A stretch of DNA of 64,000 bases from an uncultured Gemmatimonadaceae bacterium (GCA_963790305.1 CAWBOC010000009.1:288001-352000), one strand, 5' to 3'. Counted from the stretch's first letter, positions 1 through 60,780 are shown. Notes: generated by a model from the letters alone, not told the origin. A program made the numbers and translations.

Positions 1-359
1 CGTCGCCCAGGGCAAGGGTATGCTCGCGATTCAACCGGTCGCGCAGCGAACCGCCCGGGACGTAAACGCGAGACGTAGTACAACCGACCGTCGGCCTCGC
101 CGGAGTCGATGAGGGGCACGATGTGGGGATGCGACAGACGCGCCGCAATGCGGATCTCGCGCTCGAACCGCTCCGCGCCTAACGCCCTCGTGAGATCGGG
201 ATGGAGCACCTTGATCGCGACCCGACGGGAGTGTTTCTGCTCCTCCGCCAGGTAGACCGTCGCCATTCCGCCATAGCCCAGCGGGCGCTCAATGACGTAG
301 CGGCCGGCCAGTACATGGCCGGGCTCGAAAGCGGCTGGCGACGAGATGGGGGTGGTCAC
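1..359 (-). CDS. Hanks-type Ser/Thr protein kinase, N-terminal part (runs off window; frameshift near 70)
   Basis: Hand translation from GTG 359 gives YVIERPLGYGGMATVYLAEEQKHSRRVAIKVLHP...FEREIRIAARLSHPHIVPLIDSGEADGRLYYV; another frame continues YVPGGSLRDRL. Confidence 0.9.
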   Translation of the reverse strand, partial: MTTPISSPAAFEPGHVLAGRYVIERPLGYGGMATVYLAEEQKHSRRVAIKVLHPDLTRALGAERFEREIRIAARLSHPHIVPLIDSGEADGRLYYVSRLRPGRFAARPVESRAYPCPGR

Positions 360-472
360 GAGGATACAACGCGCGGAAGGGACGGATCGTGCGAGGCTGT
401 TGGAGCCTTATCATCCGCCCCCATCGGCGGCCCCGCAAGGCGGGCGGCCGGGCATTATCGTATCATACAGGA

Positions 473-1657
473 ATGGCACAACTGACCGCTCCGCGCGACT
501 GGGATTCACGCCTCCGCGGACTTCCCGAGCTGAGCAGCGCCGAGCTGCAGCGGTACGGGAGGCACCTCGTCCTGCCCAACGTGGGCCTGGACGGGCAGCG
601 CCGGCTGAAGGCGGGTCGTGTTCTGCTGGTGGGCGCGGGCGGGCTCGGGTCCCCGGTGGCGTTGTACCTGGCAGCCGCCGGCGTCGGCACACTGGGCCTC
701 ATCGACTTCGACGTCGTGGACCTCTCCAACCTCCAGCGGCAGGTGCTCCACGGCACCAGCGACGTCGGCCGCTCCAAGCTGGATTCGGCACGGGACCGCA
801 TTCGGGACGTCAACCCGCACGTCGCGGTGGACACGTACGAGATGCGGCTGACGTCCGCCAATGCGATCGACATCCTGAGCGAGTACGATGTCGTGGTCGA
901 CGGCACCGATAACTTCGCGACCCGCTATCTCACCAACGACGCGTGCGTCCTCCTCGGCAAGCCTAACGTCTACGGATCGATCTTTCGATTCGAGGGTCAG
1001 GCCTCCGTGTTCGCGACCGAGACCGGACCCTGCTATCGGTGCCTGTATCCCGAGCCACCGCCGCCCGGCCTCGTGCCCAGCTGCGTGGAGGGTGGCGTGC
1101 TGGGGGTGTTGCCGGGGATCGTGGGCACGATCCAGGCGACGGAGGCGCTCAAGCTGCTGCTCGGTATCGGCGATCCGCTCGTCGGGCGACTCCTGTTGAT
1201 CGACGCACTGGGCTCGCGCTTCCGCACGGTGCAGCTGGATCGCGACCCTGCCTGTCCCGCCTGCGGCACCCGGGAGATCCGGGAGCTCATCGATTACGAC
1301 GCGTTCTGCGGGGCGGCGGCGCCAGGGAATGCAGGTGTCGCGTCTGACGTAACCCCGATCGAGCTTGCGCGACGTCTGGCGCGCGGCGAGGTGCCTGACA
1401 TCATCGACGTGCGCGAGCCGTACGAGTGGCAGATCGCCCGGATTCCCGGCGCGCGGCTCATCCCGCTGGGCACGCTCAACCAGGCGCTGTCATCGCTTGA
1501 CCCGAGCCGTGACATCCTGGTGTACTGTCACCACGGCATTCGCAGCGCACACGCCGCCGAACAGCTCCGCGCCGCGGGATTCACGCGGGTGTCGAATCTC
1601 GCCGGGGGTATCGAGCGCTGGAGTCAGGACGTAGACCCGAGTGTACCGAGGTATTAG
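473..1657 (+). CDS. moeB: MoeB/ThiF-family adenylyltransferase with C-terminal rhodanese domain (MoeZ-like)
   Basis: RYGRHL, GAGGLG, DFDVVDLSNLQRQ, PCYRC, CPAC and rhodanese CHHGIRS; start taken at ATG 473. Confidence 0.93.
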   Translation: MAQLTAPRDWDSRLRGLPELSSAELQRYGRHLVLPNVGLDGQRRLKAGRVLLVGAGGLGSPVALYLAAAGVGTLGLIDFDVVDLSNLQRQVLHGTSDVGRSKLDSARDRIRDVNPHVAVDTYEMRLTSANAIDILSEYDVVVDGTDNFATRYLTNDACVLLGKPNVYGSIFRFEGQASVFATETGPCYRCLYPEPPPPGLVPSCVEGGVLGVLPGIVGTIQATEALKLLLGIGDPLVGRLLLIDALGSRFRTVQLDRDPACPACGTREIRELIDYDAFCGAAAPGNAGVASDVTPIELARRLARGEVPDIIDVREPYEWQIARIPGARLIPLGTLNQALSSLDPSRDILVYCHHGIRSAHAAEQLRAAGFTRVSNLAGGIERWSQDVDPSVPRY

Positions 1658-1670
1658 GGCGAGCCTTGCT

Positions 1671-1694
1671 CTTTATCATAAAGTGCTTTATCAT
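1671..1694. promoter_or_regulatory. Putative transcription-factor operator
   Basis: AT-rich CTTTATCATAAAGTGCTTTATCAT: direct repeat CTTTATCAT x2 and palindrome ATAAAG-TG-CTTTAT, just upstream of the 1718 ORF. Confidence 0.45.
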
Positions 1695-1717
1695 GCTGCA
1701 GCCCTTACCTCGCCACG

Positions 1718-2023: not shown

Positions 2024-2042
2024 CCCGCCGGAGCGTTCCGCT

Positions 2043-2645
2043 CTATTCGTCGGGGGATGCGCCCGGCTCCAGCACTCGCGCCTCGACTCCACCCATGAAC
2101 GCGAAGCCAGTCAACCGGACGACCGGCGCGTTTGGATCCCCCGACGCCGGCTGCTTGAGCTGATCCTCGAAGCCGCCCATGAAGGCGAACCCGTCGGACT
2201 CGAGGCGGACGTTAGGCGGAACGGTCACGACGACGCCGCCCATGACCGCGAAGACGTCGATCTCGGTCACGCCCGGATCCAGCGCTGCCTCACGCAGATC
2301 CAGCTCGATCCCGCCCATGAAGGCGACGGCGTGAATGCGATTCGGCACGACCCAGGCACCGCGACGGACGACCCCGCTCATCACGGCGACGAAGTTGCGC
2401 GCACGCGACCGCTTCTCGGCGGGAACGCGCGGGCTCGGGGGCGGGACGATCGTCAGCGCAGGAAGCCCGACGAGCACGGAATCGAGCGCCTCCGGACTGC
2501 GCGCGGCGTACGCCTGCTCGAGCCTCGACTCGAGCTCCTCGAGCGTGAGCTGATCACGGGCGTAGTGAATGCTGAGACGCTCCACGGCGCGCTCTCGCGC
2601 GGCATCGAGACTTGCCGCGGGAACCGGACGGCCGGGGTTGGTCAT
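2043..2645 (-). CDS. DUF1707 (SHOCT-like) plus LiaF/DUF2154-like protein
   Basis: RERAVERLSIHYARDQLTLEELESRLEQAYAA, then repeated AFMGG/AVMGG beta motifs. Confidence 0.85.
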   Translation of the reverse strand: MTNPGRPVPAASLDAARERAVERLSIHYARDQLTLEELESRLEQAYAARSPEALDSVLVGLPALTIVPPPSPRVPAEKRSRARNFVAVMSGVVRRGAWVVPNRIHAVAFMGGIELDLREAALDPGVTEIDVFAVMGGVVVTVPPNVRLESDGFAFMGGFEDQLKQPASGDPNAPVVRLTGFAFMGGVEARVLEPGASPDE

Positions 2646-2655
2646 GCCCGCGGCG

Positions 2656-3525
<870 letters not shown>

Positions 3526-3530
3526 GATCT

Positions 3531-3635: not shown

Positions 3636-5105
3636 GCTCAGAACCAGATAAAAGGCAAAGCTCAACCCAAACGTCACAAACCACGCATACGAGTATAGCT
3701 GATCGAACAGATTCGGGTCCGCGACGCGGCCGCCGGGGGTCAGCGCGGCACGAATGAAGCCCGGGACGACGGGAAGAACGGACAGGACAAGGGCCGCGAC
3801 GGCCCGCCAGTTGTAGCCGTTGCGGTAGCTGTACGCGCCCTGCTCCCGGAAGAGATCGCCGACGAGAAGCTTCTGGCGGCGCAGCACCCAGTAGTCCGCG
3901 ATCAGGATCCCGCCAAGAGCACCCATGAGGCTCGAGTAGCCGAGGAGCCAGGTGAAGATGTACGCCGCGGCGTCGGAGTAGAGCTTCCACGGCATCATCA
4001 GGACGCCGATCACCGCCGTGATCAGGCCGCCCCGCACGTAGCTGATGCGCTTCGGGCTCAGGTTCGAGAAGTCGTTCGACGGGGAGACGACATTCGCCGC
4101 CATGTTGGTGGTGATCTGCGCCGCCAGCACGATGAGCGCGGCGAAGATGATGAGCCCTGCCCCGCCGATGCGACTCACCAGCACGACGGGATCCCAGATC
4201 GCCTCACCGAAGATCACGATCGTCGCCGCGGTCACCGCGACACCGATGAACGCGAACAGCGTCATCGTCGTCGGCAGGCCTAACGCCTGGCCGAGCGCCT
4301 GCGATCGCTGGCTCTTGGCGTAGCGGGTGAAATCGGGGATGTTGAGGCTGAGCGTCGCCCAGTAGCCGACGTTCGCCGTCAGTGCGGCGGGAAAGAGCAC
4401 CCAGAATGGCGTCCCGCCAGGTCCCTGCAGTCGTTGCGATTGCGCCAGGACGTTCGTTAGGCCCCCGCCGTTCCGGATGCCCCACCACAACAGCAGGAGT
4501 CCGCCACCGAGCAGAAGGGGGGCCGACCAGCTCTCGAGCACCTTGATGCCTTCCGTCCCCTTGAGAATGATGGCCACCTGGAGCAGCCAGAAAATCGCGA
4601 AGGCGATCCACGTCGCGCCGGGGATCGACGCCCATGTCGGCCAGGCGGCGCGGAAGAGCGCGTCGAGGGCGAGTGCGCCGATCCACGTCTGAATGCCGAA
4701 CCAGCCGCAGGCCACGATTGCGCGGAGAATGGCGGGAATGTTGGCGCCGCGTACCCCGAAGCTGGCTCGACACAGCACCGGAAACGAGATCCCGTAGCGC
4801 GTGCCGGCGTGGGCGTTCAGGATCATCGGGATCAACACGATCGCGTTGCCGAGGAGGATGACGAGCAGGGCCTGCCACCAGTTCATGCCCTGCGACATGA
4901 GGCCGGAGGCGAGCGTGTAGGTCGTGATGACGACGCTCATCCCGATCCAGAGCGCCGCGATGTTGTACGTCGACCAGGTACGCCGCTCGGGCGGCGTCGG
5001 GGCAAGATCGGGATTCCACAGCGGGCTATCGGAGAGGTCCTCGTGCGTGACGACGACGTCCGGCGTGTATGCGTCCGAACGCGCCGGCGCGACGGGAGTG
5101 CTCAC
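3591..5105 (-). CDS. NCS1 nucleobase:cation symporter (uracil/pyrimidine)
   Basis: WIGMSV, ACGWFGIQTW, YWATLSLNIPDFTRYA; about 12 TMs; GTG 5105 overlaps the hydA stop (GTGA). Confidence 0.92.
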   Translation of the reverse strand: MSTPVAPARSDAYTPDVVVTHEDLSDSPLWNPDLAPTPPERRTWSTYNIAALWIGMSVVITTYTLASGLMSQGMNWWQALLVILLGNAIVLIPMILNAHAGTRYGISFPVLCRASFGVRGANIPAILRAIVACGWFGIQTWIGALALDALFRAAWPTWASIPGATWIAFAIFWLLQVAIILKGTEGIKVLESWSAPLLLGGGLLLLWWGIRNGGGLTNVLAQSQRLQGPGGTPFWVLFPAALTANVGYWATLSLNIPDFTRYAKSQRSQALGQALGLPTTMTLFAFIGVAVTAATIVIFGEAIWDPVVLVSRIGGAGLIIFAALIVLAAQITTNMAANVVSPSNDFSNLSPKRISYVRGGLITAVIGVLMMPWKLYSDAAAYIFTWLLGYSSLMGALGGILIADYWVLRRQKLLVGDLFREQGAYSYRNGYNWRAVAALVLSVLPVVPGFIRAALTPGGRVADPNLFDQLYSYAWFVTFGLSFAFYLVLSRGGRGDRGSPGGRG

Positions 5106-9396: not shown

Positions 9397-10851
9397 CTAT
9401 GACATCCAGTTCACACCAGCCTCGCGATTCCACTTCGTCGTCATCTTCTTCGCCTGCGTCCAGAACTCGATCGATCCGCGCCCGGTGATGTCCCCGACGC
9501 CGAACTTCGAATCGTTCCAGCCGCCGAAGGAGAACGGCTCACGCGGCACCGGAACGCCCACGTTGACGCCGACCATTCCCGCGCTCGCGCGCTCCATGAC
9601 ATAGCGCGCCATCCCCCCGCTCTCGGTGAACACGGAGGCCGCATTCCCGTACGGCGACGCGTTCTCGATCGCGATCGCCCTGTCGACATCGGGCGCACGC
9701 ACGATCACGAGCACGGGGCCGAACACTTCTTCCTGCGCGATGCGCATCTCGGGCGTCACGTAGTCGATGATCGTCGGTCCCAGATAGTAGCCACCTTCCC
9801 GGCCGGCCACCGTGGTCTTTCGGCCGTCGACGATCACCTTCGCACCCGCCGCCTCGGCCTCAGCGATATACGACTCGATGCGCTTCTTCGCCTCGGCGGA
9901 GATCACGGGCCCCAGATCCTTGCCCGCCACCATGCGGCTGGCCACCGCCTTCATGCGGTCGATGATGTGATCACTGGTCGAGACGGCGACCATGACCGAC
10001 GCGGCCATGCACCGCTGCCCCGCACACCCCGACATGGAGGCGACGATGTTCGTCGATGCCATCTCCGGATCGGCATCGGGAAGGACGATGAGGTGGTTCT
10101 TGGCGCCGCCTAACGCCAGGCAGCGCTTGAGCGCCGCGGTCGAGCGGCGATAGACGATCTTCGCCGTCTTGGTCGAGCCGACGAAGCTCACCGCCGCGAT
10201 ACCCGGGTGGTCGCAGATCGCCTCGACGGCGTCCTTGCCGCCGTGCACCACCTGAAAAACCCCTTCGGGAAGTCCCGCTTCCGCCAGGAGCTCGGCAATG
10301 CGCCCCGCGCTCAACGGCACGAGCTCCGAGGGCTTGAGGATCAGGCAGTTGCCGAGCGCGATCGCGTTGGGGATCGACCAGTTCGGCACCATGTTCGGGA
10401 AGTTGAACGGCGTGATCGCGGCGACGACACCCACCGGAAAGCGCTCAATGCGGCACTCGACACCCCTGCTGACTTCGAGCACCTCTCCCGGAGCGATCTG
10501 CGGAAGCGAACACGCAAACTCGGTGAGCTCGGCGGACTTGAGGACCTCGGCCCGCGCTTCGCTGACGATTTTTCCATTCTCCTCGGTGACCAGCGCCGCG
10601 AGGTCATCAATGTCGCGCTCGAGCAGCGTCTTGTACCGGTAGAAGATCTGGACGCGCTCCTTGATCGGCGTCGCTGCCCAGGCGGGAAACGCCGCCTTCG
10701 CGGAGCGAACGGCGGCGTCGACGTCGTCAGCGGCCGAGAGCGGGACCCGCGAAATGACTGCGCCGCTGCTCGGGTCGTACACGTCCAGCAGCGGGCGATC
10801 CGCGGTCACGAAGGAGCCGCCGACGTAGTTCCGGACTTCGGGATACTTCAT
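9397..10851 (-). CDS. mmsA: CoA-acylating (methyl)malonate-semialdehyde dehydrogenase
   Basis: ITPFNFP, LKPSE, SFVGST, GGAKNH, GQRCMA, EEVFGPV, GVNVGVPVP. Confidence 0.93.
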   Translation of the reverse strand: MKYPEVRNYVGGSFVTADRPLLDVYDPSSGAVISRVPLSAADDVDAAVRSAKAAFPAWAATPIKERVQIFYRYKTLLERDIDDLAALVTEENGKIVSEARAEVLKSAELTEFACSLPQIAPGEVLEVSRGVECRIERFPVGVVAAITPFNFPNMVPNWSIPNAIALGNCLILKPSELVPLSAGRIAELLAEAGLPEGVFQVVHGGKDAVEAICDHPGIAAVSFVGSTKTAKIVYRRSTAALKRCLALGGAKNHLIVLPDADPEMASTNIVASMSGCAGQRCMAASVMVAVSTSDHIIDRMKAVASRMVAGKDLGPVISAEAKKRIESYIAEAEAAGAKVIVDGRKTTVAGREGGYYLGPTIIDYVTPEMRIAQEEVFGPVLVIVRAPDVDRAIAIENASPYGNAASVFTESGGMARYVMERASAGMVGVNVGVPVPREPFSFGGWNDSKFGVGDITGRGSIEFWTQAKKMTTKWNREAGVNWMS

Positions 10852-11383: not shown

Positions 11384-13599
11384 CACTGAACGCGGTGCCG
11401 CACGATGCCGAAGGACAATGACTGTGCGGGCACCGCCCGCCCGGACGGATCGCGCCCCTGCACGACCGCCCGGTACACTCCGCTGGCGATCGGCGCTCCA
11501 GCCTCGTTGACCAGATTCCAGGTCAGCGATGGCTGGTCCCCAGCAGGCAGAGCGCGGACGAGCGTGCCATCCGGCTCGAGTATTTGCACGAGCCCTCCGG
11601 GCGGCAGGTTGGCGAAGACGAGACCGGGAGTCTCGGTGGGCCCGGTGATGCTCAGCCGTACCGCCCGAGGACCGCGACTCCGCACCGGCAATGACGTGAT
11701 CGGAGAGCCAAGGCTACTGACGCCGATCACGACAGTGCCTCGCGTCCGGACCTCATGCAACGGAGACAGGGCCTCGGCGAGCGCCGGATCCAGGTGCACC
11801 GCCTGCTGAAATGCGCTCGACGCTTCCCGAAGACGCCCCTGATCCGCGAGCAGCGTTCCGAGGGTGAAGTGCGCCAGAGGCAGGCTTGGCTGCTCGGCAA
11901 GCGCGCGACGATACTCCTGCTCGGCGTCGTCGCGCCGACCCTGGGCTTGCAGGAAGTCGGCGTAGTCGGCGCGAATCCACGCCAGCGCCGGCTGCAGGGC
12001 AAGGGCGCGGCGATAAAGCGAGTCAATGACCGCGGGAGCCCGCCCGGCGCGCTCGTACGACTGCGCCAGGGCGCGCAGCCGATCGGGCCGATTCGAGTCG
12101 GCCCGCACCGCCTGCTCGAGTGCGCGAATGGCCTCATCGTTTCTGCCGAGCTGCTGATAGGCTACGCCGAGCAGAAAGTGTGCTTCCCCTCGCGTCGTGT
12201 CGGTTCCGAGGGCGCGGTGGAGTGCAGCGGCGCCGCCGGCAAGCGCACTGGCATCGGTGGCACGGGCTGCATAGACGATCTGCCCCATGCCGCCGTACAC
12301 CGCGGCGTCGGGCCCGTTCTTGTCCCGCTCGAAATACGCCTCGATGAGTTGGTCCGTCGACTGCCTAACGGGCGCCGCTGCCGACCCTGGCGCCACGACT
12401 CGAATCCAGTGGTCGGTGAACGTTCCGTGGGGGACGGCGCGTTCCTTCACACGGGGCATATGGCAGCTTGCGCAGTCCGCCCCGGCGCTGTGGTCGGCGC
12501 GCGCCGGTGAACGCTCGAATCGCTCGGCCAGGGCCGCCGCCGCATGGCAGCCAAGACAGGGTTGGTTACGCGCCGCGGAGTCCGGCGGTGGACGGTGCGG
12601 GTTGTGGCAGATTGCGCACTCGAGCGGGCGCGAGGTGGCGCGCGTCGCGAGGAAGCAGGCGCTTTGCCGCAGGCGATCGGCGTGGGATACGATGTCGATG
12701 CTCCCCGCCACCTTGAAGAACGCCCACTGCTCGCGCAGCGGCTGCGAGGGAAGGTAACTGAAGGCGTCCTTTCCCTCACGCAGGACCGTCACTGGCGTGT
12801 GCACGTGACATTGCTCGCACACGTCCAGCCGGCGCGCGAGAGGAAGTCGCGCCGGATTTACGATCGTATTGTCGAACGTGGTGTCGCCGTCCACCGTCGC
12901 GCGTCGCTGACCGACGTGAAGCGCCCCGGGCCCATGGCATCGCTCGCATCCGATCCCGGGGCGGAGCTCGGCGTACTTGCCCTCGAGAAATGGAAATGGC
13001 CGCGGATAGCTCGAGTGACAGGCGATGCATCGATCGGGCATGACACGATCGAAGCGCGCGTTGTTCAGCTCGTACCCGGGACTGAAATCCCATCCATGCT
13101 GTCGATACCAGGTGAGCGGCAACTGGAACAGCCGTCCGTTCTCCTCGGTAAAGTAGGTGCGTGCGACCACCCCGCTCCCCATCACGTAGTCCATGCGCCG
13201 GCGCTGCTCATGGATGCGCTTCCCGCCGGCGCCGAGAATGAGCTCGACCTGGTACAGCTGACCGCCGTCATCGACGACGGAGTAGTGGAATCCCGTTGGG
13301 CGGTGCACGAGCGCCGTGTCGAGCGTGGTCTCGATACGATCCGCCGGCGTCCAGCGATGAAACGACCGCGACATCGCATGTTGGTCGTACGCCGCTGCTT
13401 CGGCGCTGTGACAGCTCTCGCAGGCCGCGTCACCGACATAGTCGGTGGGGGCACTGACGTTTCGAAAGACCGGCGATGGCTCGTCAGGCAGGTCCGGCGG
13501 CACGTCCGTCCGCGACGAGCGGTCGCATGCGGTGATTGCCGCTGCGGCAAGGCACAGTGAAACGAGGAGCGCCTTGACTCTCGGGCGGCGGAACGTCAC
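11383..13599 (-). CDS. Multiheme c-type cytochrome lipoprotein with TPR repeats and C-terminal FlgD-Ig-like domain
   Basis: Lipobox-like AAITAC; seven CxxCH motifs (CESCH, CIACH, CERCH, CEQCH, CAICH, CLGCH, CASCH); TPR helices; DGTLVRAL...W...SGVY tail. Confidence 0.85.
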   Translation of the reverse strand: MTFRRPRVKALLVSLCLAAAAITACDRSSRTDVPPDLPDEPSPVFRNVSAPTDYVGDAACESCHSAEAAAYDQHAMSRSFHRWTPADRIETTLDTALVHRPTGFHYSVVDDGGQLYQVELILGAGGKRIHEQRRRMDYVMGSGVVARTYFTEENGRLFQLPLTWYRQHGWDFSPGYELNNARFDRVMPDRCIACHSSYPRPFPFLEGKYAELRPGIGCERCHGPGALHVGQRRATVDGDTTFDNTIVNPARLPLARRLDVCEQCHVHTPVTVLREGKDAFSYLPSQPLREQWAFFKVAGSIDIVSHADRLRQSACFLATRATSRPLECAICHNPHRPPPDSAARNQPCLGCHAAAALAERFERSPARADHSAGADCASCHMPRVKERAVPHGTFTDHWIRVVAPGSAAAPVRQSTDQLIEAYFERDKNGPDAAVYGGMGQIVYAARATDASALAGGAAALHRALGTDTTRGEAHFLLGVAYQQLGRNDEAIRALEQAVRADSNRPDRLRALAQSYERAGRAPAVIDSLYRRALALQPALAWIRADYADFLQAQGRRDDAEQEYRRALAEQPSLPLAHFTLGTLLADQGRLREASSAFQQAVHLDPALAEALSPLHEVRTRGTVVIGVSSLGSPITSLPVRSRGPRAVRLSITGPTETPGLVFANLPPGGLVQILEPDGTLVRALPAGDQPSLTWNLVNEAGAPIASGVYRAVVQGRDPSGRAVPAQSLSFGIVRHRVQ

Positions 13600-13779
13600 T
13601 GGAGTGACAACTGGGCCATTCGTGCGCGGGTCTGGCGGAAATCGATGGCGAACAGTGGTCGGAGTCGCGCGCGAGCGTCAAGGACTGGACGGGAACTTTC
13701 GCGGCGTCGTCGACCCGTCCGTTCTTGATGTCAGCGCGCTGAGCAGTTGTATTCCGGCAATGCATCCAGACCGCATCGC

Positions 13780-15117
13780 GTGACGGAGCTCGCCCGCCGC
13801 CTCGGCGTCTTCGATGCCACCATGATCGTGATGGGCGGCATCATTGGCGCCGGCATCTTCATCAGCCCGTACGTCGTCGCGCGACACGTCAACACAACGC
13901 CGCTCATCCTCGGGGCATGGGTCGCGGGCGGTGCCATCGCGCTCGCCGGTGCCTTCGTGTATGCCGAGCTCGCGGCCCTGCGACCGGAAGCGGGCGGCGT
14001 GTACGCGTATCTCCGGGATGCCTTTCATCCCATCGTCGCATTCCTGTTCGGCTGGACGCTCCTCCTCGTAGTGCAGGCGGGAGGAATGGCGGCGGTCGCG
14101 GTGACCTTCGGTCTGTACGTGAGGGATCTCACCGGCATCGCGCTTTCGCCGACCACGCTCGCCGTGGGGGCACTGGTCGCCCTCACGATCATCAACTGCT
14201 TTGGGGTTCGCACCGGCGCGAACGTGCAGAACACGTTCATGGTGCTGAAGATCGTCGCCATCGGGGCATTGGTGACGATCGGATGGCTCGCGGTGGGAAC
14301 GGCGCCGCCCACGCCCGAGGTCGCGCGAGCGACCGGCTTCGGCGCGGCGATGGTTCCCGTACTCTTCGCCTACGGCGGATGGCAGACCGCCAGCTTCGTC
14401 TCCGAGGAAATGCGGGATACCCAACGCGACCTGCCCCGGGCCATGCTCTGGGGGATCATCGGTGTCGTCGTCCTGTACCTGGCAGCGAACCTCGTGTACG
14501 CGTTGGTGCTGAGCCCGGCCGGGCTCGCCGCAACGACCACGCCCGCCTCGGAGGTCATGCGCCGCGCCATCGGCGAGCGAGGCGCCCGCTTCATCGCGTT
14601 AGGCATCGCCATCTCGACGATCGGCTACCTCAGCCAGGGCATGTTGACCGCGCCGCGCGTCTACTTCGCCATGGCGCGCGACGGCGTCTTTTTCTCGAAG
14701 GTGGGCTGGCTTCATCCGCGAACACGCGCGCCGGTCTACGCCATCGCTCTTCAGGGCGTCTGGGCGGTCGCGGTCGCGTTGTCAGGCCGGTACGAGCAGA
14801 TCCTGAACTATGTCGTGGCGATCGACGCGATCTTCTTCGGGCTCACGGGCGTGGCGCTCATCGTCTTCCGACGACGTGAGTCTCGCGAGGCAGGCTCGAG
14901 ACGATTCCGTACCCCCGGTCACCCCTGGACGACGATCCTCTTCGTCGCCGCCTTCTGGATTGTCGCCTTCAACACCGTGCTGCAGTTTCCGACGTCGGCT
15001 GGCATCGGTGTCCTGGTGCTTTTGGCCGGGGTTCCGGTCTACCTGTGGTGGTCCAGGCAGCGCGTCAGGCTGGCGGCTCGATCCTCAGCGGCACCACCGT
15101 CGTCCCCCAGTGCATAA
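13780..15117 (+). CDS. APC-family amino acid permease
   Basis: GGIIGAGIF, YAELAAL, GGVYAY, FAYGGW, PRVYFAMARDG; start GTG 13780. Confidence 0.92.
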   Translation: MTELARRLGVFDATMIVMGGIIGAGIFISPYVVARHVNTTPLILGAWVAGGAIALAGAFVYAELAALRPEAGGVYAYLRDAFHPIVAFLFGWTLLLVVQAGGMAAVAVTFGLYVRDLTGIALSPTTLAVGALVALTIINCFGVRTGANVQNTFMVLKIVAIGALVTIGWLAVGTAPPTPEVARATGFGAAMVPVLFAYGGWQTASFVSEEMRDTQRDLPRAMLWGIIGVVVLYLAANLVYALVLSPAGLAATTTPASEVMRRAIGERGARFIALGIAISTIGYLSQGMLTAPRVYFAMARDGVFFSKVGWLHPRTRAPVYAIALQGVWAVAVALSGRYEQILNYVVAIDAIFFGLTGVALIVFRRRESREAGSRRFRTPGHPWTTILFVAAFWIVAFNTVLQFPTSAGIGVLVLLAGVPVYLWWSRQRVRLAARSSAAPPSSPSA

Positions 15118-15610
15118 CCAGCTCGCCAGTCAGTCCGTCCACGTCCGGGAAGTAGAACGTCAACAGCTCCACCGGAGGCCCTTCGCGCACGGTAGTCTCG
15201 ACGCGCAGAACGTCACTGCCGCTGGGATACGGCAGATGCCACACCGGATGCGCGCTGCTGAAGATGACGGTCCAGCGGGTTTGGTCGGGAATCATCGAGA
15301 TGCTGTACGTGCCGGCGGCTAGCGCCTGGCCGTTGACGCGCACCGCGCTGCTGAACGTGATGCTCGTGGCCGTGTCGGCGCCAGGAGTCCACGGTCGCCC
15401 CCAGGGCACGAGGGCGCCAAACAGCTCGCGTCCGCGTGCGCCTGGCCGGCTGTACTTCACTTCGATCCGCGTCGGGCCTAACGCCTGCGTCACCGAAGCT
15501 TGCTGACTCCGTCGCGGGCGGCGTGTCTCCTGAGCGCATAGCGACGACGTCAGCATGAGCCCGGCGAACGGGGCCAGAACACCAATCGTCCGAATGCCGA
15601 CGGCCGGCAT
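15065..15610 (-). CDS. DUF2911 family secreted protein
   Basis: Signal peptide; SQQASVTQ, YSRPGARGRELFGALVPWG, WTPGA, AGTYS. Confidence 0.88.
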   Translation of the reverse strand: MPAVGIRTIGVLAPFAGLMLTSSLCAQETRRPRRSQQASVTQALGPTRIEVKYSRPGARGRELFGALVPWGRPWTPGADTATSITFSSAVRVNGQALAAGTYSISMIPDQTRWTVIFSSAHPVWHLPYPSGSDVLRVETTVREGPPVELLTFYFPDVDGLTGELVMHWGTTVVPLRIEPPA

Positions 15611-16029: not shown

Positions 16030-16133
16030 GCACCGAAATTAAGCGCGGAGGTGCCAGTTCAAAACAGTCAGCGCGTCAGGAATCCGTTAGTGTCCCATCC
16101 CGGGCCTCAGGGCTCGAAAAGCTCATTTCAAGC

Positions 16134-21005: not shown

Positions 21006-21078
21006 GCGCACAGTTCCACCGAGACATGGCCGAGCGGCGGCGTGGGTCCCATCACCACGCCGCCGTTCGCCGTTCTCG

Positions 21079-48788: not shown

Positions 48789-50006
48789 ATGACGACGCCC
48801 GAATCTCCGCGCGCGGCTGCGCCGGTCTCCCTGCGCACGAAGCTGCTGTGGGTCGCCGCCTTTTACTTCGCATCGGGCTTCCCCTTCGGCATCACGACGG
48901 AGCTGCTGCCGGTCTATTACCGCCAGCGCGGCGTCAGTCTCACCGACATTGGGCTGCTGAGCGTCATCGCACTCCCGTGGACGTTCAAGTTCCTCTGGGC
49001 CCCGCTCGTCGATCGCATCGGGACATACAAGCGGTGGCTGCTTGGCGTGCAGATCGGGCTCGCGGGAACAATGCTCGCGCTCCTGCTGGCCGATCCGGCG
49101 CGCGCGATGCCGCTGTTGTGGGTCGTGCTGATGGCCATGGCAACGCTCTCGGCCACGCAGGACATCGTCGTCGACGCATACACGATCCGCCTGCTCGACA
49201 CGCGGGAGTACGGGGCGGCGAACGGGGTGCGCGTCACCTCCTATCGAGTGGCGATGCTGGTCGCTGCCGGGGTGTTGCTCACCGCCGCGGGCCGCATGGG
49301 ATGGCCGACGATCTTCATGCTCGCGGCGGGGATCATGCTGATCCTGACCGCGATCTCCTTCACGATTCCGAGCAGCAATGTGCCGCGAGCTGCTGCGCAC
49401 GGGGGTCTCCGCGATCTCGTCGAGCCATTCCGCGAGCTGCTGACCCTCCCTGCCGCGATCGCCGTCCTCATCTTCGTGCTGACGTTCAAGCTGGGCGACA
49501 TATCGCTCATCCCGATGACGAAGCCGTTCTGGGTCGATCGTGGCTTTTCGACCGAGAGCATCGGGGCCGCGAGCACACTCGGGATCATCGCGGCGATCGC
49601 GGGAGCGCTCCTAGGGGGCGCGCTGACGACACGGTGGGGAATCTTCACCGCACTCTGGAGCCTCGGCCTCGTGCAGGCCCTCTCCAACCTCGGCTACTGG
49701 GCGGCGTCGCAGCTGCCCGCCGAGCAGAGCGTCCTCTACGGGACGATCCTGCTGGAGCAGGTCACGTACGGGATGGGCACCGCCGCTTTCCTTTCCTTCC
49801 TCATGTCGCTGTGCTCGAAGCGATACGCGGCGACGCAATACGCGCTGCTGTCGGCGCTCTTTCGTGTTGGCGGGCTCATCGCCGGAGCGATCTCCGGCGC
49901 GATCACCGAGGACGTGGGCTACGGGACGTACTTTTTCATCACGTTCCTGCTCGCGTTGCCGGCGTTCTCGCTGCTTCCCTGGGTGCGTCGGACGGTCGCT
50001 CGTTAG
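48789..50006 (+). CDS. ampG: AmpG-like muropeptide MFS permease
   Basis: FASGFP, LPWTFKFLWAPLVD, SATQDIVVDAY, ATQYALLSAL. Confidence 0.88.
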   Translation: MTTPESPRAAAPVSLRTKLLWVAAFYFASGFPFGITTELLPVYYRQRGVSLTDIGLLSVIALPWTFKFLWAPLVDRIGTYKRWLLGVQIGLAGTMLALLLADPARAMPLLWVVLMAMATLSATQDIVVDAYTIRLLDTREYGAANGVRVTSYRVAMLVAAGVLLTAAGRMGWPTIFMLAAGIMLILTAISFTIPSSNVPRAAAHGGLRDLVEPFRELLTLPAAIAVLIFVLTFKLGDISLIPMTKPFWVDRGFSTESIGAASTLGIIAAIAGALLGGALTTRWGIFTALWSLGLVQALSNLGYWAASQLPAEQSVLYGTILLEQVTYGMGTAAFLSFLMSLCSKRYAATQYALLSALFRVGGLIAGAISGAITEDVGYGTYFFITFLLALPAFSLLPWVRRTVAR

Positions 50007-50045
50007 GCTTTCCAGTCGAGCGCGCCCGTGTACAGCGGAACTCGG

Positions 50046-54391: not shown

Positions 54392-54392
54392 C

Positions 54393-56144
54393 ATGCGCTT
54401 CTTCGGATTCCTGGAGCATCGAATGACTGCTGGACGGCGGGTTGGTCTTGCCCTCTTGCTCATCACGGTGGCCACATGCAGGCCGCCCTGGAGCCGTTCG
54501 AGCGGCCTCTTTCCCGCGGAATGGCGTTTCAGCTCGGGGCGCACCGCCGCGTATGCGCCGAGCGCGATGGTCTCCAGCAACGACTCGCTGGCGAGCCTGG
54601 CCGGGGTGGAGATTCTGCGCCGGGGCGGCAACGCGGTAGACGCCGCGGTCGCGGTCGGATTCGCGCTGGCGGTGACGTATCCCGAGGCCGGCAACCTCGG
54701 CGGCGGTGGATATATGGTCATCCGAATGGCCGACGGCCGCACCGCCGCGCTCGACTATCGCGAGCGTGCGCCGCGGGGCGCCACGCGCGACATGTATTCG
54801 CAGACCTACGCCAGCGTTCCCAACGCGAGCCTGGTCGGTCATCTCGCGTCCGGCGTTCCTGGCGCGGTGGCGGGAATGGTCGAGGCGCACGCGAAATACG
54901 GCATCCTCCCGCTCGTCGATGTGCTTGCTCCGGCGATTCGCCTTGCCGACTCCGGGTTCACGGTCGACTCGGCGCTGGCGCGGTCGCTGGAGAATGCACG
55001 TGAGCTCATTGCGGCCTACGCGGGCGGTGCGCTCTTCATGCCTAACGGCGTTCCGCTGCCGCGAGGAACCCGCCTGGCGCAACCAGACCTCGCCAACACG
55101 CTTCGGCGCATCGCCGAGCGCGGGGCGCCAGGCTTCTACGAGGGGGAGACGGCGCGCCTGCTGGCCGAGGAGATGCGTCGCGGCGGTGGTCTGATCACCG
55201 AAGAAGATCTGCGCGACTATCGCCCGGCATGGAGGGCCGCCCTCGAAGGCACATATCGGGGATACCGGCTCATCGGAATGCCGCCGTCCTCGTCGGGCGG
55301 CGTGACGATGATGGAGACGCTCAACATTCTCGAGACATTCCCCGACCTGCCCCCGTTCGGAAGCGCCGCGTACACGCACGTGCTCACCGAGGCGTTTCGT
55401 CGAGCCTTCATCGACCGCAACACAAAGCTCGGCGATCCCGATTTCGTCAGCGTTCCCGTCGTGCGCCTGACGAGCGACTCGTACGCCCGTGAGCTCGCCG
55501 CCACGATCGATCCGGCCCGCGCATCCGTCACGGTGGCGTTCGACAGCGCGGCCCGGGAGAGCGACCACACCACGCACTACTCGGTGGTGGACGCGGCCGG
55601 CAACGCGGTCGCAACGACGACGACGATCAACGAGCTGTACGGCTCCGGGGTGTACATTCCCGGTGCGGGCTTCTTCATGAACAACGAGATGGATGACTTC
55701 GCCACGCGCCCTGGCGAGCCCAATCTCTTTGGCCTGGTGCAGGGGGAGACGAACGCCATCGCGCCAGGCAAGCGCATGCTGAGCGCAATGTCTCCGACGA
55801 TCGTCCTCGACACGGCGGGGGCGGTAGTTCTCGTCCTGGGCGGACGCGGTGGTCCGCGCATCATCTCCAGCACGCTGCAGGTGGTCGTAAACGTGATCGA
55901 TCACGGGATGAGCCTCGCCGACGCCCTGGCGGCGCCGCGCATCCACCATCAGGCGTGGCCGGATACGCTACGGTACGAGCAGGAGGGCCTCACGGCGGCA
56001 GTCGTCGATTCGCTCCGCGCAATGGGCCACGGGGTGTCCGCTGGACGTGCGAGCGGATTGGTGAAGGCGATCATGCGTGCGCCAGGCGGAGGATGGCACG
56101 GAGCGTACGATCCTCGGTCGTCTGGGGGCGCGGTCGGATACTGA
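54393..56144 (+). CDS. ggt: Gamma-glutamyltransferase
   Basis: GGNAVDAAVA, LDYRERAP, PPSSSGG, TTHYSVVD, NNEMDDF, KRMLSAMSP, PRIHHQ. Confidence 0.95.
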   Translation: MRFFGFLEHRMTAGRRVGLALLLITVATCRPPWSRSSGLFPAEWRFSSGRTAAYAPSAMVSSNDSLASLAGVEILRRGGNAVDAAVAVGFALAVTYPEAGNLGGGGYMVIRMADGRTAALDYRERAPRGATRDMYSQTYASVPNASLVGHLASGVPGAVAGMVEAHAKYGILPLVDVLAPAIRLADSGFTVDSALARSLENARELIAAYAGGALFMPNGVPLPRGTRLAQPDLANTLRRIAERGAPGFYEGETARLLAEEMRRGGGLITEEDLRDYRPAWRAALEGTYRGYRLIGMPPSSSGGVTMMETLNILETFPDLPPFGSAAYTHVLTEAFRRAFIDRNTKLGDPDFVSVPVVRLTSDSYARELAATIDPARASVTVAFDSAARESDHTTHYSVVDAAGNAVATTTTINELYGSGVYIPGAGFFMNNEMDDFATRPGEPNLFGLVQGETNAIAPGKRMLSAMSPTIVLDTAGAVVLVLGGRGGPRIISSTLQVVVNVIDHGMSLADALAAPRIHHQAWPDTLRYEQEGLTAAVVDSLRAMGHGVSAGRASGLVKAIMRAPGGGWHGAYDPRSSGGAVGY

Positions 56145-57152: not shown

Positions 57153-57275
57153 ATTGCCTCCCTCTAGGGTCGTACTGCGTTCTGTAAACGCTTGCAATCT
57201 GCATCGTTACGTGCGGCCGGCGCTTCGTGACATGCCGCGCACATCAATGATATCCGGGCAAGGGGTGTGCCAGTC

Positions 57276-59063
57276 ATGAGGGCTCTCTGGCAACTCCTTC
57301 CCTACTATCGGCCCTACCGTAGGCGGTTCGTCGCCGGCCTGGCCCTCGTGATTGTCTCGTCCGGGTTGGCTGGGATCATCCCCTGGCTGCTCCGCCGAGC
57401 CATCGATGACATGCGTGCCGGCACGTCCGCCGGGCGCATTGTGCTCATCGCCGCCAGTATGGTGGCCATCGCACTCCTCAGCGGTGCCGCGCGCTACGGG
57501 ATGCGCGACCTCATGAACGGCGTGTCGCGATCGATCGAGTACGATCTGCGCAATGGCCTGTTCCGCCACCTCGCCTCGCTCAATGCGTCGTTCTTCGCCT
57601 CGATGCGCACCGGCGACATCATGGCCCGCCTAACGAACGATCTCAGCGCGGTCCGGATGGCGGTGGGTCCGGCGATCATGTATCTCGTCAACACGATCGC
57701 GGGTGGCGCCTTCGCGCTCGTCTTCATGCTGAGCATCGATCCGCGGTTCACGCTCGTCGCCCTGCTGCCCGTCGTGCTGTTGCCGATCATCATGGCGAAG
57801 GGCGGCACGGCCATTCACCATCGCTTCGAGGCGGTGCAGGAGCACTTCTCGACGATGACCACCCGTGCCCAGGAGAACATCTCCGGAGCGCGGATCGTCA
57901 AGGCCTATCGGCAGGAGAGACCCGAAATCGATCGCTGGCGTGACATGAACGAGGAGTACGTCCGCCGGAACATGCGCCTCGTGCGGCTGTGGGGCCTGTT
58001 GAACCCGGGATTCTCGCTGCTGGCGGGGTTGGGAGGCGTCATCGTGCTCGGGTACGGCGGGCGCCTCGTACTCGCGGGAGAGATTTCGGTCGGCTCGCTG
58101 GTCGCGTTCGGCTTTTATCTGGGGATGCTCACCTGGCCCCTCATAGCGCTCGGCTGGGTGACGAACCTCTTTCAGCGCGGGGCGGCGTCCCTGGCACGGC
58201 TCAACCAGATCGTTCACGCGCGCTCGGCGATCCGCGAGCGCGCGGATCCTCGCCCGCTTCCACCGGCCCGAGCGGGACGCTCGATCGAATTCCGCAACGT
58301 CGGGTTCCACTACCCCGTAAGACAGGGGGAGACGCCACGGTGGGTGCTGCGAGAGATCTCGTTCTCGCTTCCCCCAGGTGGGACGCTGGGCGTGGTGGGA
58401 GCGACCGGCAGCGGCAAGAGCGCGCTCATCGACCTCGTTCCGCGCATTCACGACCCCCAGGAAGGGGAGATTCTCATCGACGGCCTGTCGATTCGCGACC
58501 TTTCTCTCGCCGCTCTGCGAGCCGAGATCGGGTACGTGCCACAGGAGACCTTCCTGTTCAGTGATACCGTCCGAGCCAACCTGCTGTACGGCGCGGAGGA
58601 CCTGTCATCGACCGAGTGGGCGGCGGGCGTCGCCCAGCTGGACGAGACCATCGCAGAATTTCCTGGCGGATATGAAACACTTCTGGGCGAACGCGGTATC
58701 AATCTCTCCGGCGGGCAAAAACAACGCGCAGCACTGGCGCGAGCGCTCGCCCGGCGGCCCGGAATCGTCCTGCTGGACGACGCGCTCTCAGCCGTCGACT
58801 CTCACACCGAAGCAGAGATTCTCCACGGCCTTCGCGACGCGCTGGGCGGTCGGACGGCGATCATCGCCTCGCACCGAATCAGCGCTATCCGCGAAGCCAG
58901 CTGGATCATTGTGCTCGACGACGGACGGATCGTCGAAGAAGGACGTCACGCGGAGCTGCTCGCCGCTGGCGGTCGGTATTGGTCGCTGCTGAACCGCCAA
59001 CTGCTCGAGGACTCGATCGAGCACGAACGCGACGTCATGGCACCGAGTGCCATTTCTCAATAA
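57276..59063 (+). CDS. ABC exporter, fused TMD-NBD (MdlA-like)
   Basis: RTGDIMARLTND, GATGSGKS, LSGGQKQR, LLDDALSAVD, SHR. Confidence 0.93.
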   Translation: MRALWQLLPYYRPYRRRFVAGLALVIVSSGLAGIIPWLLRRAIDDMRAGTSAGRIVLIAASMVAIALLSGAARYGMRDLMNGVSRSIEYDLRNGLFRHLASLNASFFASMRTGDIMARLTNDLSAVRMAVGPAIMYLVNTIAGGAFALVFMLSIDPRFTLVALLPVVLLPIIMAKGGTAIHHRFEAVQEHFSTMTTRAQENISGARIVKAYRQERPEIDRWRDMNEEYVRRNMRLVRLWGLLNPGFSLLAGLGGVIVLGYGGRLVLAGEISVGSLVAFGFYLGMLTWPLIALGWVTNLFQRGAASLARLNQIVHARSAIRERADPRPLPPARAGRSIEFRNVGFHYPVRQGETPRWVLREISFSLPPGGTLGVVGATGSGKSALIDLVPRIHDPQEGEILIDGLSIRDLSLAALRAEIGYVPQETFLFSDTVRANLLYGAEDLSSTEWAAGVAQLDETIAEFPGGYETLLGERGINLSGGQKQRAALARALARRPGIVLLDDALSAVDSHTEAEILHGLRDALGGRTAIIASHRISAIREASWIIVLDDGRIVEEGRHAELLAAGGRYWSLLNRQLLEDSIEHERDVMAPSAISQ

Positions 59064-59075
59064 CATTTGGACGTC

Positions 59076-59906
59076 ATGAAAACTACGCTGTCCGATCAGA
59101 TCAAGCTCGAGGCGCGCTCAATCGAAGAGCGTTTGGCGCTGTTCGAGGAGCAGCACCTTCAGCTCACCCGCCAGATCTCCGAGCTGCGCAACGAGGACGC
59201 GATGAAGACGCAGTTCCTCGCGAACATCTCGCATGATTTGCGTACGCCCCTGACCGCCATCATCACCCACGCCGAAATTCTGCGCGATGGCATCCTGGGC
59301 GAGCTCAATCCGCGACAGCGCGAAAGCGTCGTCGGCATGATCAACGGCGGTCGCCAGCTGCTCGACATGGTCAGCGACATCCTGACCTACGCGCGCAGCG
59401 CGGCCAATCAGCTCACCACGTCGCACACCGAGTTCGGCATTGAGGCGTTGATCCACCAGGTCACCACGCTCAATGGGCCGCTCATCGCCAAGCGGACGCT
59501 GACGCTGACCGTCGACGTCGCGCCGAATCTCCCCCACGTGCGCGCCGATCGCGACAAGATTCACCACGTCCTCAGCAACCTGCTCGGGAACGCCATCGAC
59601 TTCACATCGTCGGGCGGCCGCGTCTGGATCCGCGCCGCTGTGGCCTCCGAGGAGCCACGGCCGACGATCTTCGTGGAGGTCGGCGACACCGGGATCGGTA
59701 TCGCGCCGGAGCATCACGAGCTCGTCTTCCGCGAGTTCGCCCAGGTCGACGCCTCCCCCTCGCGGGCGCACCACGGCACGGGCCTGGGTCTGGCCATCGC
59801 GCGGAAGTTCGTCGAGCTCCACGACGGAAAGATCTGGGTCGAAAGCGCCCTCGGTCAGGGAAGCCGCTTCTGCTTTACCCTGCCGTGCCGACCAAGGACG
59901 GAGTGA
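59076..59906 (+). CDS. Cytoplasmic histidine kinase with no evident sensor domain
   Basis: ISHDLRTPL, NLLGNA, DTGIGI, GTGLGL; only a short coiled coil upstream. Confidence 0.9.
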   Translation: MKTTLSDQIKLEARSIEERLALFEEQHLQLTRQISELRNEDAMKTQFLANISHDLRTPLTAIITHAEILRDGILGELNPRQRESVVGMINGGRQLLDMVSDILTYARSAANQLTTSHTEFGIEALIHQVTTLNGPLIAKRTLTLTVDVAPNLPHVRADRDKIHHVLSNLLGNAIDFTSSGGRVWIRAAVASEEPRPTIFVEVGDTGIGIAPEHHELVFREFAQVDASPSRAHHGTGLGLAIARKFVELHDGKIWVESALGQGSRFCFTLPCRPRTE

Positions 59907-60292
59907 CGCCGGACACGGCCCACGTACTCGTCGTTGAAGACAACGCGCTCGTGACCAGTGCGATGCGCATTCTGCTCGAGGATGCCGCGTTTCGAGTGAG
60001 CACGGCCGCCAGCCTGGCTGAGGCGCACGCGCTCTGCCTGAAGGATCCGCCGGCCGCGATACTCCTCGATCTCCGTCTCCCGGACGGCGACGGGCTGTCT
60101 CTGCTCAAGCGACTCCGGGCAGACGGAATCGTCCCGGGCGTCGTCGTGGCGCTCACCGGGCGAGACGAGCCCGACATTCGCGCACGCTGCCTCCGGGCGG
60201 GGTGCCTCGACGTATTGCTGAAGCCGGTGGACGTCCGCTCGCTCGCGCCGCGGCTCAGGTCGTGGTTGGCAGCGAGCGCGGGCGCGTCCTAA
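59903..60292 (+). CDS. Single-domain response regulator
   Basis: VVEDN, LLDLRLPDGDG, ALTG, LKPV; GTGA overlap with the HK. Confidence 0.9.
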   Translation: MTPDTAHVLVVEDNALVTSAMRILLEDAAFRVSTAASLAEAHALCLKDPPAAILLDLRLPDGDGLSLLKRLRADGIVPGVVVALTGRDEPDIRARCLRAGCLDVLLKPVDVRSLAPRLRSWLAASAGAS

Positions 60293-60600
60293 CGAGCGCT
60301 GCGATAGAACTCCTCGACGCACATCGTCACGACCGAGTCGAAGAGGGGACCGGTCTCCTCACGCGACATCCTGTGAAGCTCGGGGCGGCCCTGCCAGGTT
60401 CGCTTGAAGAGGACGATCAGCTCCTCGGCGCGCATGCCCTGTCGGCGCGCCTCCTCGCACACGGCTCGCATGGCACGCTGAACATCGAGTTCACGGGCGC
60501 CGCCATCGGACTGAAGGGCAAGCTCCAGGGTTCGATCGGTCACCGTCATGAGGTAAGACGAGGAGGATTCGCCCGCAATCGGAGCCTGTTCGAACTCCAT
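60289..60600 (-). CDS. Hypothetical helical protein
   Basis: AAGGAGG RBS; EARRQGMRAEELIVLFKRTW...VTMCVEEFY. Confidence 0.75.
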   Translation of the reverse strand: MEFEQAPIAGESSSSYLMTVTDRTLELALQSDGGARELDVQRAMRAVCEEARRQGMRAEELIVLFKRTWQGRPELHRMSREETGPLFDSVVTMCVEEFYRSAR

Positions 60601-60780
60601 GCAAGCCTCCTTGTTCCGTTCGCGGAGTGAGCAGCGTCGCTCACACGCCCGCACCCATAATACGAAATGCGACCTAGCCTGTCAAGCTACTGTCGTATAA
60701 GGAGTTATGGCACATCGATGAGCGGCGCGAACCCTTCAGTGCCCTGTCGTTCAACGCGCTGTTGCGAACGTTAGGCAACG

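Follow-up and report, generated by a model that had tools for sequence, protein, structure and literature searches.

The DNA window analyzed here is a 64-kb stretch of contig C9 of G000, the assembly of an uncultured Gemmatimonadaceae bacterium (G000:C9:288001-352000; GCA_963790305.1 CAWBOC010000009.1:288001-352000), with a GC content of 65 to 68%. Its genes, as called by a conservative caller, include those for NrdJ and an ABC exporter, and recurring through the window is an octamer, GCCTAACG, that is the subject of this study. An exact search found 23 copies of this word, 12 on the plus and 11 on the minus strand (Table 1), recovering every copy and the strand split listed in the original prediction, which had been made from the letters of the window alone. 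One hundred dinucleotide-preserving shuffles of the window gave a mean of 1.02 copies and a maximum of 5. All six of the one-mismatch copies claimed near 6269, 18577, 38547, 47192, 51081, and 60287 are likewise present, among 54 in the window; matches with at most one mismatch number 77 against 43.6 in the shuffles, so that the one-mismatch class lies modestly above chance.

Codon reading of the copies bore out the contexts that had been claimed (nCG-TTA-GGC, CCT-AAC, CTA-ACG, and a stop formed through CGT-TAG). Nine of the 23 copies read nCG-TTA-GGC, five CCT-AAC, one CTA-ACG, and one GTT-AGG, while one supplies a TAG stop and six lie at places where the conservative caller placed no gene. 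The copies at 4278 and 4455 form one of only 11 adjacent pairs at most 300 bp apart in the whole genome.

Table 1. Copies of GCCTAACG in the window, and one methylase locus of the same genome
Position	Strand	Gene	Codons (peptide)	Remark
177..184	+	no called gene
961..968	+	389-1657(+), sense	AAG-CCT-AAC-GTC (KPNV)
2210..2217	-	2043-2645(-), sense	CCG-CCT-AAC-GTC (PPNV)
4278..4285	+	no called gene		pairs with 4455
4455..4462	-	no called gene		pairs with 4278
10108..10115	+	9397-10851(-), antisense	GCG-TTA-GGC (ALG)
12363..12370	+	11383-13599(-), antisense	CCC-GTT-AGG-CAG (PVRQ)
14597..14604	-	13747-15117(+), antisense	GCG-TTA-GGC (ALG)
15476..15483	+	15065-15610(-), antisense	GCG-TTA-GGC (ALG)
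16999..17006	-	15981-18011(+), antisense	ACG-TTA-GGC (TLG)
17879..17886	+	15981-18011(+), sense	CGG-CCT-AAC-GGT (RPNG)
21000..21007	-	no called gene
23051..23058	-	no called gene		not kept in congeners L001, L003
27216..27223	-	no called gene
28522..28529	-	28425-29375(+)	ACG-TTA-GGC (TLG)	lost in 4 of the congeners covering the site
32120..32127	+	NrdJ, 31661-34177(-)	ACG-TTA-GGC (in ITLGK)
33341..33348	+	NrdJ, 31661-34177(-)	ACG-TTA-GGC (in PTLGS)
33893..33900	+	NrdJ, 31661-34177(-)	CCG-TTA-GGC (in invariant RPLGQ)
36913..36920	-	36275-37924(-), sense	CGG-CCT-AAC-GTC (RPNV)
50001..50008	-	ORF (open reading frame) 48789-50006(+)	TAG	its TAG (50004-50006 on +) is the stop codon of the ORF
55040..55047	+	54381-56144(+), sense	ATG-CCT-AAC-GGC (MPNG)
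57628..57635	+	ABC exporter, 57267-59063(+), sense	CGC-CTA-ACG (RLT)
60769..60776	-	no called gene
G000:C7:233022-238370 (L104:5022-10370)		type IIG-like methylase and SNF2 gene		outside the window

Excess, anatomy, and placement of the word

The whole of G000 (4.31 Mb in 13 contigs, 66% GC, 94% complete) contains 855 copies of GCCTAACG, 436 forward and 419 reverse, against 40 to 68 expected from Markov models of orders 1 to 3, and at each of these orders it is the most over-represented octamer of the genome. Within called genes (2,904 of them, covering 75% of the DNA and obtained with a simple codon-usage caller that is crude and conservative), 620 copies are found, against 39 after shuffling of synonymous codons within each gene. 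This shuffle had been set beforehand as a comparison on which the original prediction could fall, and the enrichment persists. Likewise, the prediction had been staked on a concentration of TTA codons in the word, and 299 of the 1,023 TTA codons in called genes (29%) lie within it, as do 132 of 1,679 CTA codons; a tRNA-Leu(UAA) gene is encoded in the genome. A 273-kb sample of G016, from another genus, g9, holds 341 copies where 7 are expected, or 1.25 copies/kb. The excess of copies is thus confirmed as real and not an artefact of composition, codon bias, a repeat, or a recurrent peptide.

When all 855 copies are aligned, the flanks carry at most 0.1 bit per position, with a slight tendency toward C or T at the position preceding the word. 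Since no conserved sequence extends beyond the core, GCCTAACG is a bare octamer and not part of a longer repeat of the repetitive extragenic palindrome or miniature inverted-repeat transposable element kind. It is not its own reverse complement and so lacks the palindromy of the cyanobacterial word HIP1. Its one-letter neighbors in G000 are enriched in a graded manner: at position 1, G is 21-fold, A 9.6-fold, C 5.9-fold, and T 2-fold enriched; at position 8, G is 21-fold and A 9.3-fold enriched; and at position 3, A is tolerated (6.9-fold). Positions 2 and 4 to 7 are strict, save that a change of A to G at position 5 leaves 2.1-fold enrichment. The same profile is seen in the G016 sample, as a single conserved protein-DNA specificity would give. 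The neighbor GCCTCACG is scarcer than expected near copies of the word (19 against 47 within 200 bp), the neighbor GCCGAACG is not depleted there (54 against 52), and each of the four GCCTNACGA words is over-represented 2.8- to 12-fold in G000; these features hint at a broader recognition rule.

Inside genes, the word occupies every frame in which it does not make a stop, as antisense nCG-TTA-GGC (299 copies), antisense GTT-AGG (55), sense nGC-CTA-ACG (132), and sense CCT-AAC (133). Another 45 copies run across the end of a gene and 191 fall outside the called genes; the density inside and outside is similar. The synonymous opportunities used for the word amount to 10% of [STPA]-Leu-Gly, 22% of eligible Pro-Asn, 8% of [SRGC]-Leu-Thr, and 3% of Val-Arg contexts.

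Neither strand is favored along the chromosome. On the five contigs tested, orientation forms 324 runs, against 318 expected for a random order, and shows no link to GC skew in 50-kb bins of G000; the forward share is 46 to 54% in all 53 enriched genomes of the family described below. Long plus-strand runs seen in G067, G125, G167, and G093 proved to be an artefact of listing order, and on G067:C2 (186 kb) 25 plus and 44 minus copies are intermixed. All 13 contigs of G000 carry the word at similar density, from 0.13 to 0.30 copies/kb.

The spacing is more even than chance would give. In G000, 1 pair of copies lies within 100 bp (17 expected), 4 within 200 bp (34 expected), 34 within 500 bp (85 expected), and 109 within 1,000 bp (170 expected), and copies lying near each other point the same way about as often (54 pairs) as opposite ways (55 pairs). 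In the denser G016 (1.25 copies/kb), the deficit is limited to shorter distances, with 2 against 20 expected pairs within 50 bp, 11 against 39 within 100 bp, 33 against 73 within 200 bp, and 141 against 153 within 500 bp. That the exclusion range shrinks as density rises speaks for returns that diminish when a second copy lies close by, not for a fixed physical footprint. The largest word-free stretch of G000 is 54 kb long (G000:C6:288266-342699), where about 11 copies would be expected. It encodes RNase E/G, RecQ, a sigma-70 factor, AspRS, PhoH, and trp genes, an ordinary housekeeping content that rules out a foreign island.

Copies of the word are kept in evolution more often than octamers in general. 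In congeners at 77 to 88% nucleotide identity, 26 of 36 alignable word sites are retained, against 15 to 44% for any octamer. The NrdJ gene, which holds three copies in the window, illustrates this in an alignment of 60 genes, 7 from the genus and 53 from outside it. The invariant peptide RPLGQ is written with CCG-TTA-GGC in 13 of the 60 genes, the others using CTN or TTG for the leucine, and ITLGK is written with ACG-TTA-GGC in 19, drawn from all carrier clades. The third site reads Pro-His-Leu-Gly in 52 of the 53 genes from beyond the genus, whereas the seven genes of the genus, and only these, encode Pro-Thr/Ser-Leu-Gly spelled with the word, a change of four to five base substitutions in which a conserved histidine is replaced. 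On the NrdJ tree most carriers fall in one clade of 27 rows, with a few outliers. Two species enriched in the second word described below (L046 and L049) have ACG-TTA-GGT/GGG at the ITLGK site, which looks like a decayed copy of the first word.

Spread through the family, a second word, and the integron core

The original prediction had also been made to hang on the presence of the word in related genomes, and all nine genomes of the genus are enriched, with 382 to 1,006 copies of GCCTAACG each. Among 31 relatives, 12 are enriched and 19 carry 2 to 65 copies; these tallies count the unpublished G015 as word-poor (without it, 12 of 30 are enriched), and no conclusion rests on that genome. For the family as a whole, 151 genomes were searched, four unpublished ones were dropped, and at least 50 copies/Mb was taken as enriched. 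The genomes are metagenome bins or assemblies, and counts across relatives are not phylogenetically independent. Of the 147 published genomes, 53 (from 31 of 75 genera) are enriched, up to 1,327 copies/Mb, 83 have at most 12 copies/Mb, and 11 are intermediate. Word status is uniform in 48 of the 49 genera represented by two or more genomes. The exception is genus g56, in which two genomes carry 974 and 941 copies/Mb (G068 and G168) and a third carries 13 (G126). At the word sites of G068, G126 has ordinary codons only; the aligned DNA is about 73% identical, at which synonymous sites are saturated, so that the direction of change cannot be read. A 400-kb sample of the word-poor G010 contained no hyper-abundant word of any kind, and hence no substitute; the trait is switched on or off rather than spelled in another way.

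In genus g56, the gene for NrdJ has a peculiarity of its own. In the word-rich members (G068:C56:53619-57026; G168 C104 and C174) it carries an in-frame interruption of about 1.4 kb, placed between query residues 133 and 132, within one open frame of 1,160 residues, which looks like an intein. In the word-poor G126 the gene is uninterrupted.

A second word, GCCTGACGA, occurs 555 times in G000 against 102 expected at Markov order 2 (5.4-fold) and 419 times in called genes against 55 after the codon shuffle (7.6-fold). All nine of its positions matter, and its flanks prefer a pyrimidine before and a G after. In the set of 31 relatives, every genome enriched in the first word is enriched in the second as well, and so is G017, which has the second word only. 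Across the 147 genomes, 40 have both words, 13 only the first (most clearly in genera g47, g56, and g81), and 3 only the second; in ten genomes the density of the second is more than twice that of the first, and the two densities correlate with a Spearman coefficient of 0.71. In other words, GCCTGACGA co-occurs with GCCTAACG yet is separable from it, like a dialect.

The few copies in word-poor relatives are clustered, on one strand and at a spacing of 500 to 650 bp. In G021:C95 such an array consists of integron cassettes: all 14 cassette ends examined finish in CGTTAGGC, and most cassettes have an upstream box close to GCCTAACA. The core of the word, GCCTAAC/GTTAGGC, fits RYYYAAC/GTTRRRY, the consensus of the attC core, and the preference for G, then A, at position 8 in genome-wide copies matches the two boxes. 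The word is therefore identical to the attC core of the integrons of this order, whose cassette arrays use GCCTAAC(A) and (C)GTTAGGC. In contrast to attC sites, the genomic copies are solitary, double-stranded, located inside conserved genes, and without a partner box, and their abundance does not track the integrase. The cassette arrays of word-poor relatives, with cassettes of 500 to 650 bp and very uniform attC sites, lie at L098 (G021:C95:1-20000), G021:C43 and C80, G019:C3 and C26, and G029:C1, and 22 of the 31 genomes of the order have an integron integrase that scores above the curated cut-off.

Searches of the open full-text literature, in which subscription journals are not covered, turned up no account of the word as judged by titles and the openings of abstracts; of 280 papers in whose text its letters occur, the 15 listed deal, by title and abstract, with other matters. 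Taken with the null models, the random orientation, the conservation of sites, and the bimodal spread, this supports the central proposal of the original prediction, that of an undescribed, lineage-specific, non-polar signal kept against codon bias. The second word, the mutual avoidance of copies, and the match to the attC core had no place in that prediction.

The word as a putative self tag

What such a signal might do is suggested by comparison with known genome words. The DNA uptake sequence (DUS) of Neisseriaceae and the uptake signal sequence (USS) of Pasteurellaceae are short, exact words that occur about once per kilobase, in both orientations and with a spacing more even than random, that form lineage dialects, and that have a minor pilin as receptor; in Neisseria, inverted pairs serving as terminators are common. 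Like these, GCCTAACG is short, exact, and non-palindromic, equally frequent in both orientations, 20- to 48-fold enriched, and as dense as about one per kilobase (1.25 to 1.3 copies/kb at most). It also lies in genes in several frames at some cost to the protein, is spaced more evenly than chance, and has dialects that follow phylogeny, in genomes in which competence genes are present. It differs in that it is found in another phylum, is 8 bp long with no extended consensus, and forms no inverted terminator pairs; moreover, most carriers have two related words side by side, the spelling is that of the attC core, and close relatives with the same competence genes have no word. The uptake bias and the pilin receptor known for DUS and USS are putative here.

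We tentatively favor, as plausible though short of probable, the reading in which GCCTAACG is a genome-wide self tag of double-stranded DNA, similar to a DNA uptake sequence and spread by molecular drive. It is ranked first because the enrichment, non-polarity, spacing, conservation, protein cost, and dialects found here match in sum the signature of DUS and USS, and because HIP1 has now also been proposed as an uptake signal; the bias in uptake or retention and the drive are what we infer from this match. HIP1 (GCGATCGC) is described in one report as a conserved, quasi-periodic octamer that varies within its phylum, whose function is debated and which is proposed to be an uptake recognition sequence (PMC13756078). 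As in cyanobacteria with HIP1, a hyper-abundant octamer sits in coding DNA here. Unlike GCCTAACG, which is asymmetric and for which no matching methylase was found in G000, HIP1 is a palindrome read by the methylases DmtA and DmtC. It is also correlated, according to the same report (PMC13756078), with type IV secretion system proteins; we followed this up, and VirB4 of that system was found in none of the 31 genomes.

Under this reading, a sequence-specific reader would favor DNA bearing GCCTAACG, and fragments of kin DNA with a copy would be better taken up or retained. Alleles closer in spelling to the word could then spread by transformation and homologous recombination, and the word would build up at all places where the function of the protein allows, by way of rare codons and at times of amino acid changes. 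A second copy near an existing one would add little, and copies would come to be spaced out. Drift of reader specificity between lineages might give rise to a related second word such as GCCTGACGA.

Several observations weigh against such a tag. ComEC and a ComEA-like HHH_3 gene are present in all 31 relatives, equally in the word-poor ones, and are thus not discriminating; G000 further encodes DprA, 4 secretins, and 10 pilin-like genes. Competence-type genes occur in non-transforming bacteria too. One FimT-like pilin found matches of about 30% identity in all five test genomes and did not separate word-rich from word-poor. A single genome holds two distinct words, of which GCCTGACGA shows neither self-avoidance nor a deficit of close pairs in G000. 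Inverted terminator-type pairs are absent from G000, with 1 attC-like pair and 5 close pairs of the 7-mer against about 31 expected, and the largest word-free stretch contains housekeeping genes instead of foreign DNA. The exact identity with the attC core hints at a recombinase-type reader instead. Finally, we know of no naturally transformable member of the Gemmatimonadota; a literature search, judged by title and abstract, returned nothing on natural transformation in Gemmatimonad- bacteria, and a full-text search returned no paper joining Gemmatimonad- with "uptake sequence".

Two features of the competence-type and pilus genes of G000 may be recorded here. The pilin-like genes form clusters at G000:C3:167880-186845 and G000:C11:32494-43351, each with a secretin frame of 662 residues and with identical secretin scores, so that they are either the result of a duplication of a pilus or secretion locus or a product of the assembly. 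Contig C11 begins within the ComEA-like gene, which is thereby truncated.

In a variant to which we give little weight, the spelling of the tag would be set to the integron attC core, and uptake or retention would prefer not only DNA from kin but also the cassette arrays of the order, since every cassette carries the core. In Vibrio, according to PMC12614218, single-stranded DNA brought in by transformation is a source from which cassettes are recruited. If the variant held, the specificity of DNA uptake would be linked to integron cassette capture. That the word equals the core of integron sites would point to a way in which gene cassettes are acquired preferentially.

To our knowledge, words resembling uptake sequences are established in two proteobacterial families only, with cyanobacterial HIP1 as a debated third. 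The present word makes an equally strong case for a genome word in a poorly studied soil phylum. If it does mark kin DNA, it would follow that abundant, uncultured soil bacteria often undergo natural transformation. The on/off pattern among close relatives and the two separable words amount to a natural experiment for finding the reader; the best contrasts are genus g56 (about 950 versus 13 copies/Mb) and the genera with only the first word, set beside those in which the second dominates, namely g40, g52, and g64. More practically, the word distorts codon usage, as the share of TTA codons within it attests, and could serve to mark these genomes in binning and in the spotting of foreign DNA.

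Rival readings and their candidate readers

None of the candidate proteins tested (Vsr, methylases, the integrase, competence genes, VirB4, RecC, AddAB, and one pilin) tracks the distribution of the word. The rival that survives best, which we regard as rather unlikely but deserving of attention, is that an intracellular chromosomal protein, such as a nucleoid organizer or a self marker for repair or defense, binds to the word, and that the word is selected on the resident genome without any uptake. The exact octamer with graded neighbors, the non-polarity, the density-scaled spacing, and the conservation of sites fit this equally well, and the similar density on all 13 contigs is in keeping with it. 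Against it stand the failure of any candidate protein to follow the word and the density, for we know of no nucleoid or segregation site that reaches one per 0.8 kb through the rewriting of conserved proteins. Furthermore, an essential architectural role appears unlikely because 83 of the 147 family genomes do without the word and the G010 sample contains no substitute.

An improbable reading is that the word is the target of a methyltransferase, enriched by a process linked to methylation, either biased short-patch repair or the survival of methylated kin DNA. The only DNA methylase detected in G000 is a type IIG-like N6-adenine enzyme of 1,021 residues with Eco57I/MmeI-like domains and the motifs DPACGSG and GNPPW, whose gene adjoins one for an SNF2-family helicase. 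Type IIG-like enzymes read asymmetric sites of 6 to 8 bp that often end in AC, which would suit the word. A role for methylation would also find a parallel in HIP1, which enhances transformation in a way that depends on methylation, according to PMC13756078. The type IIG-like gene is present, however, in 29 of the 31 relatives, including word-poor ones; its tree follows taxonomy with no cluster of word-rich genomes, and no segment of 100 residues is more alike among these. We therefore rejected this enzyme as the reader; its vertical conservation across the order is in itself unusual for a gene of the restriction-modification type. Vsr (PF03852) turned up in 3 of the 31 relatives, not one of which is among the 12 that are word-rich, and no match to the C5 (PF00145) or N4/N6 (PF01555) methylase families was found in G000. 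In addition, a repair bias predicts neither self-avoidance nor the rewriting of four to five bases in NrdJ. Among the options that the original prediction had offered for the nature of the signal, namely uptake, a nucleoid or segregation protein site, and a link to modification or repair, the uptake-like one would seem to fit best, and the repair-linked one has been weakened by the lack of Vsr and of C5 or N4/N6 methylases and by a type IIG-like enzyme that does not track the word.

Somewhat less probable again is an integron-type recombination core, read by the integrase or a related tyrosine recombinase, the copies being landing sites of cassettes or by-products. The fit to the attC consensus, the two boxes of the G021 cassettes, the matching preference at position 8, and the integron integrase encoded in G000 (G000:C9:694984-695919) all speak for it. 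Yet an integrase above the curated cut-off occurs in 13 of the 19 relatives poor in the word and in 9 of the 12 rich in it; none was found in the word-rich G005 and G012, and in G016, the richest of the 31, it is broken into three out-of-frame pieces. As its presence fails to follow the word, the integrase was set aside as the reader. The copies are moreover solitary: across the genome, the 7-mer occurs 1,105 times and forms one attC-like inverted pair. The second word has GTC where an integron core has GTT, and so is not such a core. According to bioRxiv 10.1101/2022.09.11.507474, the attG sites at which IntI1 inserts into genomes have no more than a GWT consensus in common. Both this and the methylation or repair reading have lost the tests of co-occurrence that they predict.

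A signal that steers recombinational repair or chromosome segregation, like Chi or the FtsK-orienting polar sequences (KOPS), is very improbable and close to refuted on the sequence features. The word does resemble Chi, KOPS, and the related architecture-imparting sequences in being an over-represented octamer of the resident chromosome, and its occurrence about once per 5 kb is a density like that of E. coli Chi. Those signals are replication-polar and read by RecBCD, AddAB, or FtsK, whereas GCCTAACG lacks polarity in the orientation runs, in relation to GC skew, and on the mixed contig G067:C2. RecC was found in none of five genomes tested. An AddAB-type nuclease, taken here to be a match to PDDEXK_1 within an open frame 900 residues long or longer, read by eye, occurs in 8 of the 31 relatives, all word-poor, and was found neither in G000 nor in any of the 12 word-rich genomes; in genus g56 it is present only in the word-poor G126. 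The anticorrelation that this suggests was discarded, since it is not significant over the 147 genomes (8 of 56 against 21 of 91, P = 0.21).

Finally, the possibility that the word belongs to a mobile repeat, encodes a peptide that recurs, or simply reflects codon or composition bias has next to no probability and is refuted by the uninformative flanks, the spread over four coding frames and non-coding DNA, the codon shuffle, and the other codons with which word-poor species write the same amino acids; no support is left for it after testing. Other enriched octamers of G000 (AATGCGGA, AGGCGCTA, CTAGAGGC, and GGAGTCAG) are indeed pieces of tandem repeats. Such tandem arrays, with units of 7 to 14 bp and mostly intergenic, occur throughout G000 and explain its other top-ranked octamers (AATGCGGA, 628 copies; AGGCGCTA, 324; GGAGTCAG, 352). 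The window contains two of them between convergent genes at 36181-36278, made of 3.9 units of AAAGGCGCT and 6 units of CGCCTCTAG, and elsewhere in the genome arrays of (GAATGCG)n and of the AGGGGTCAGGAGTC type are found.

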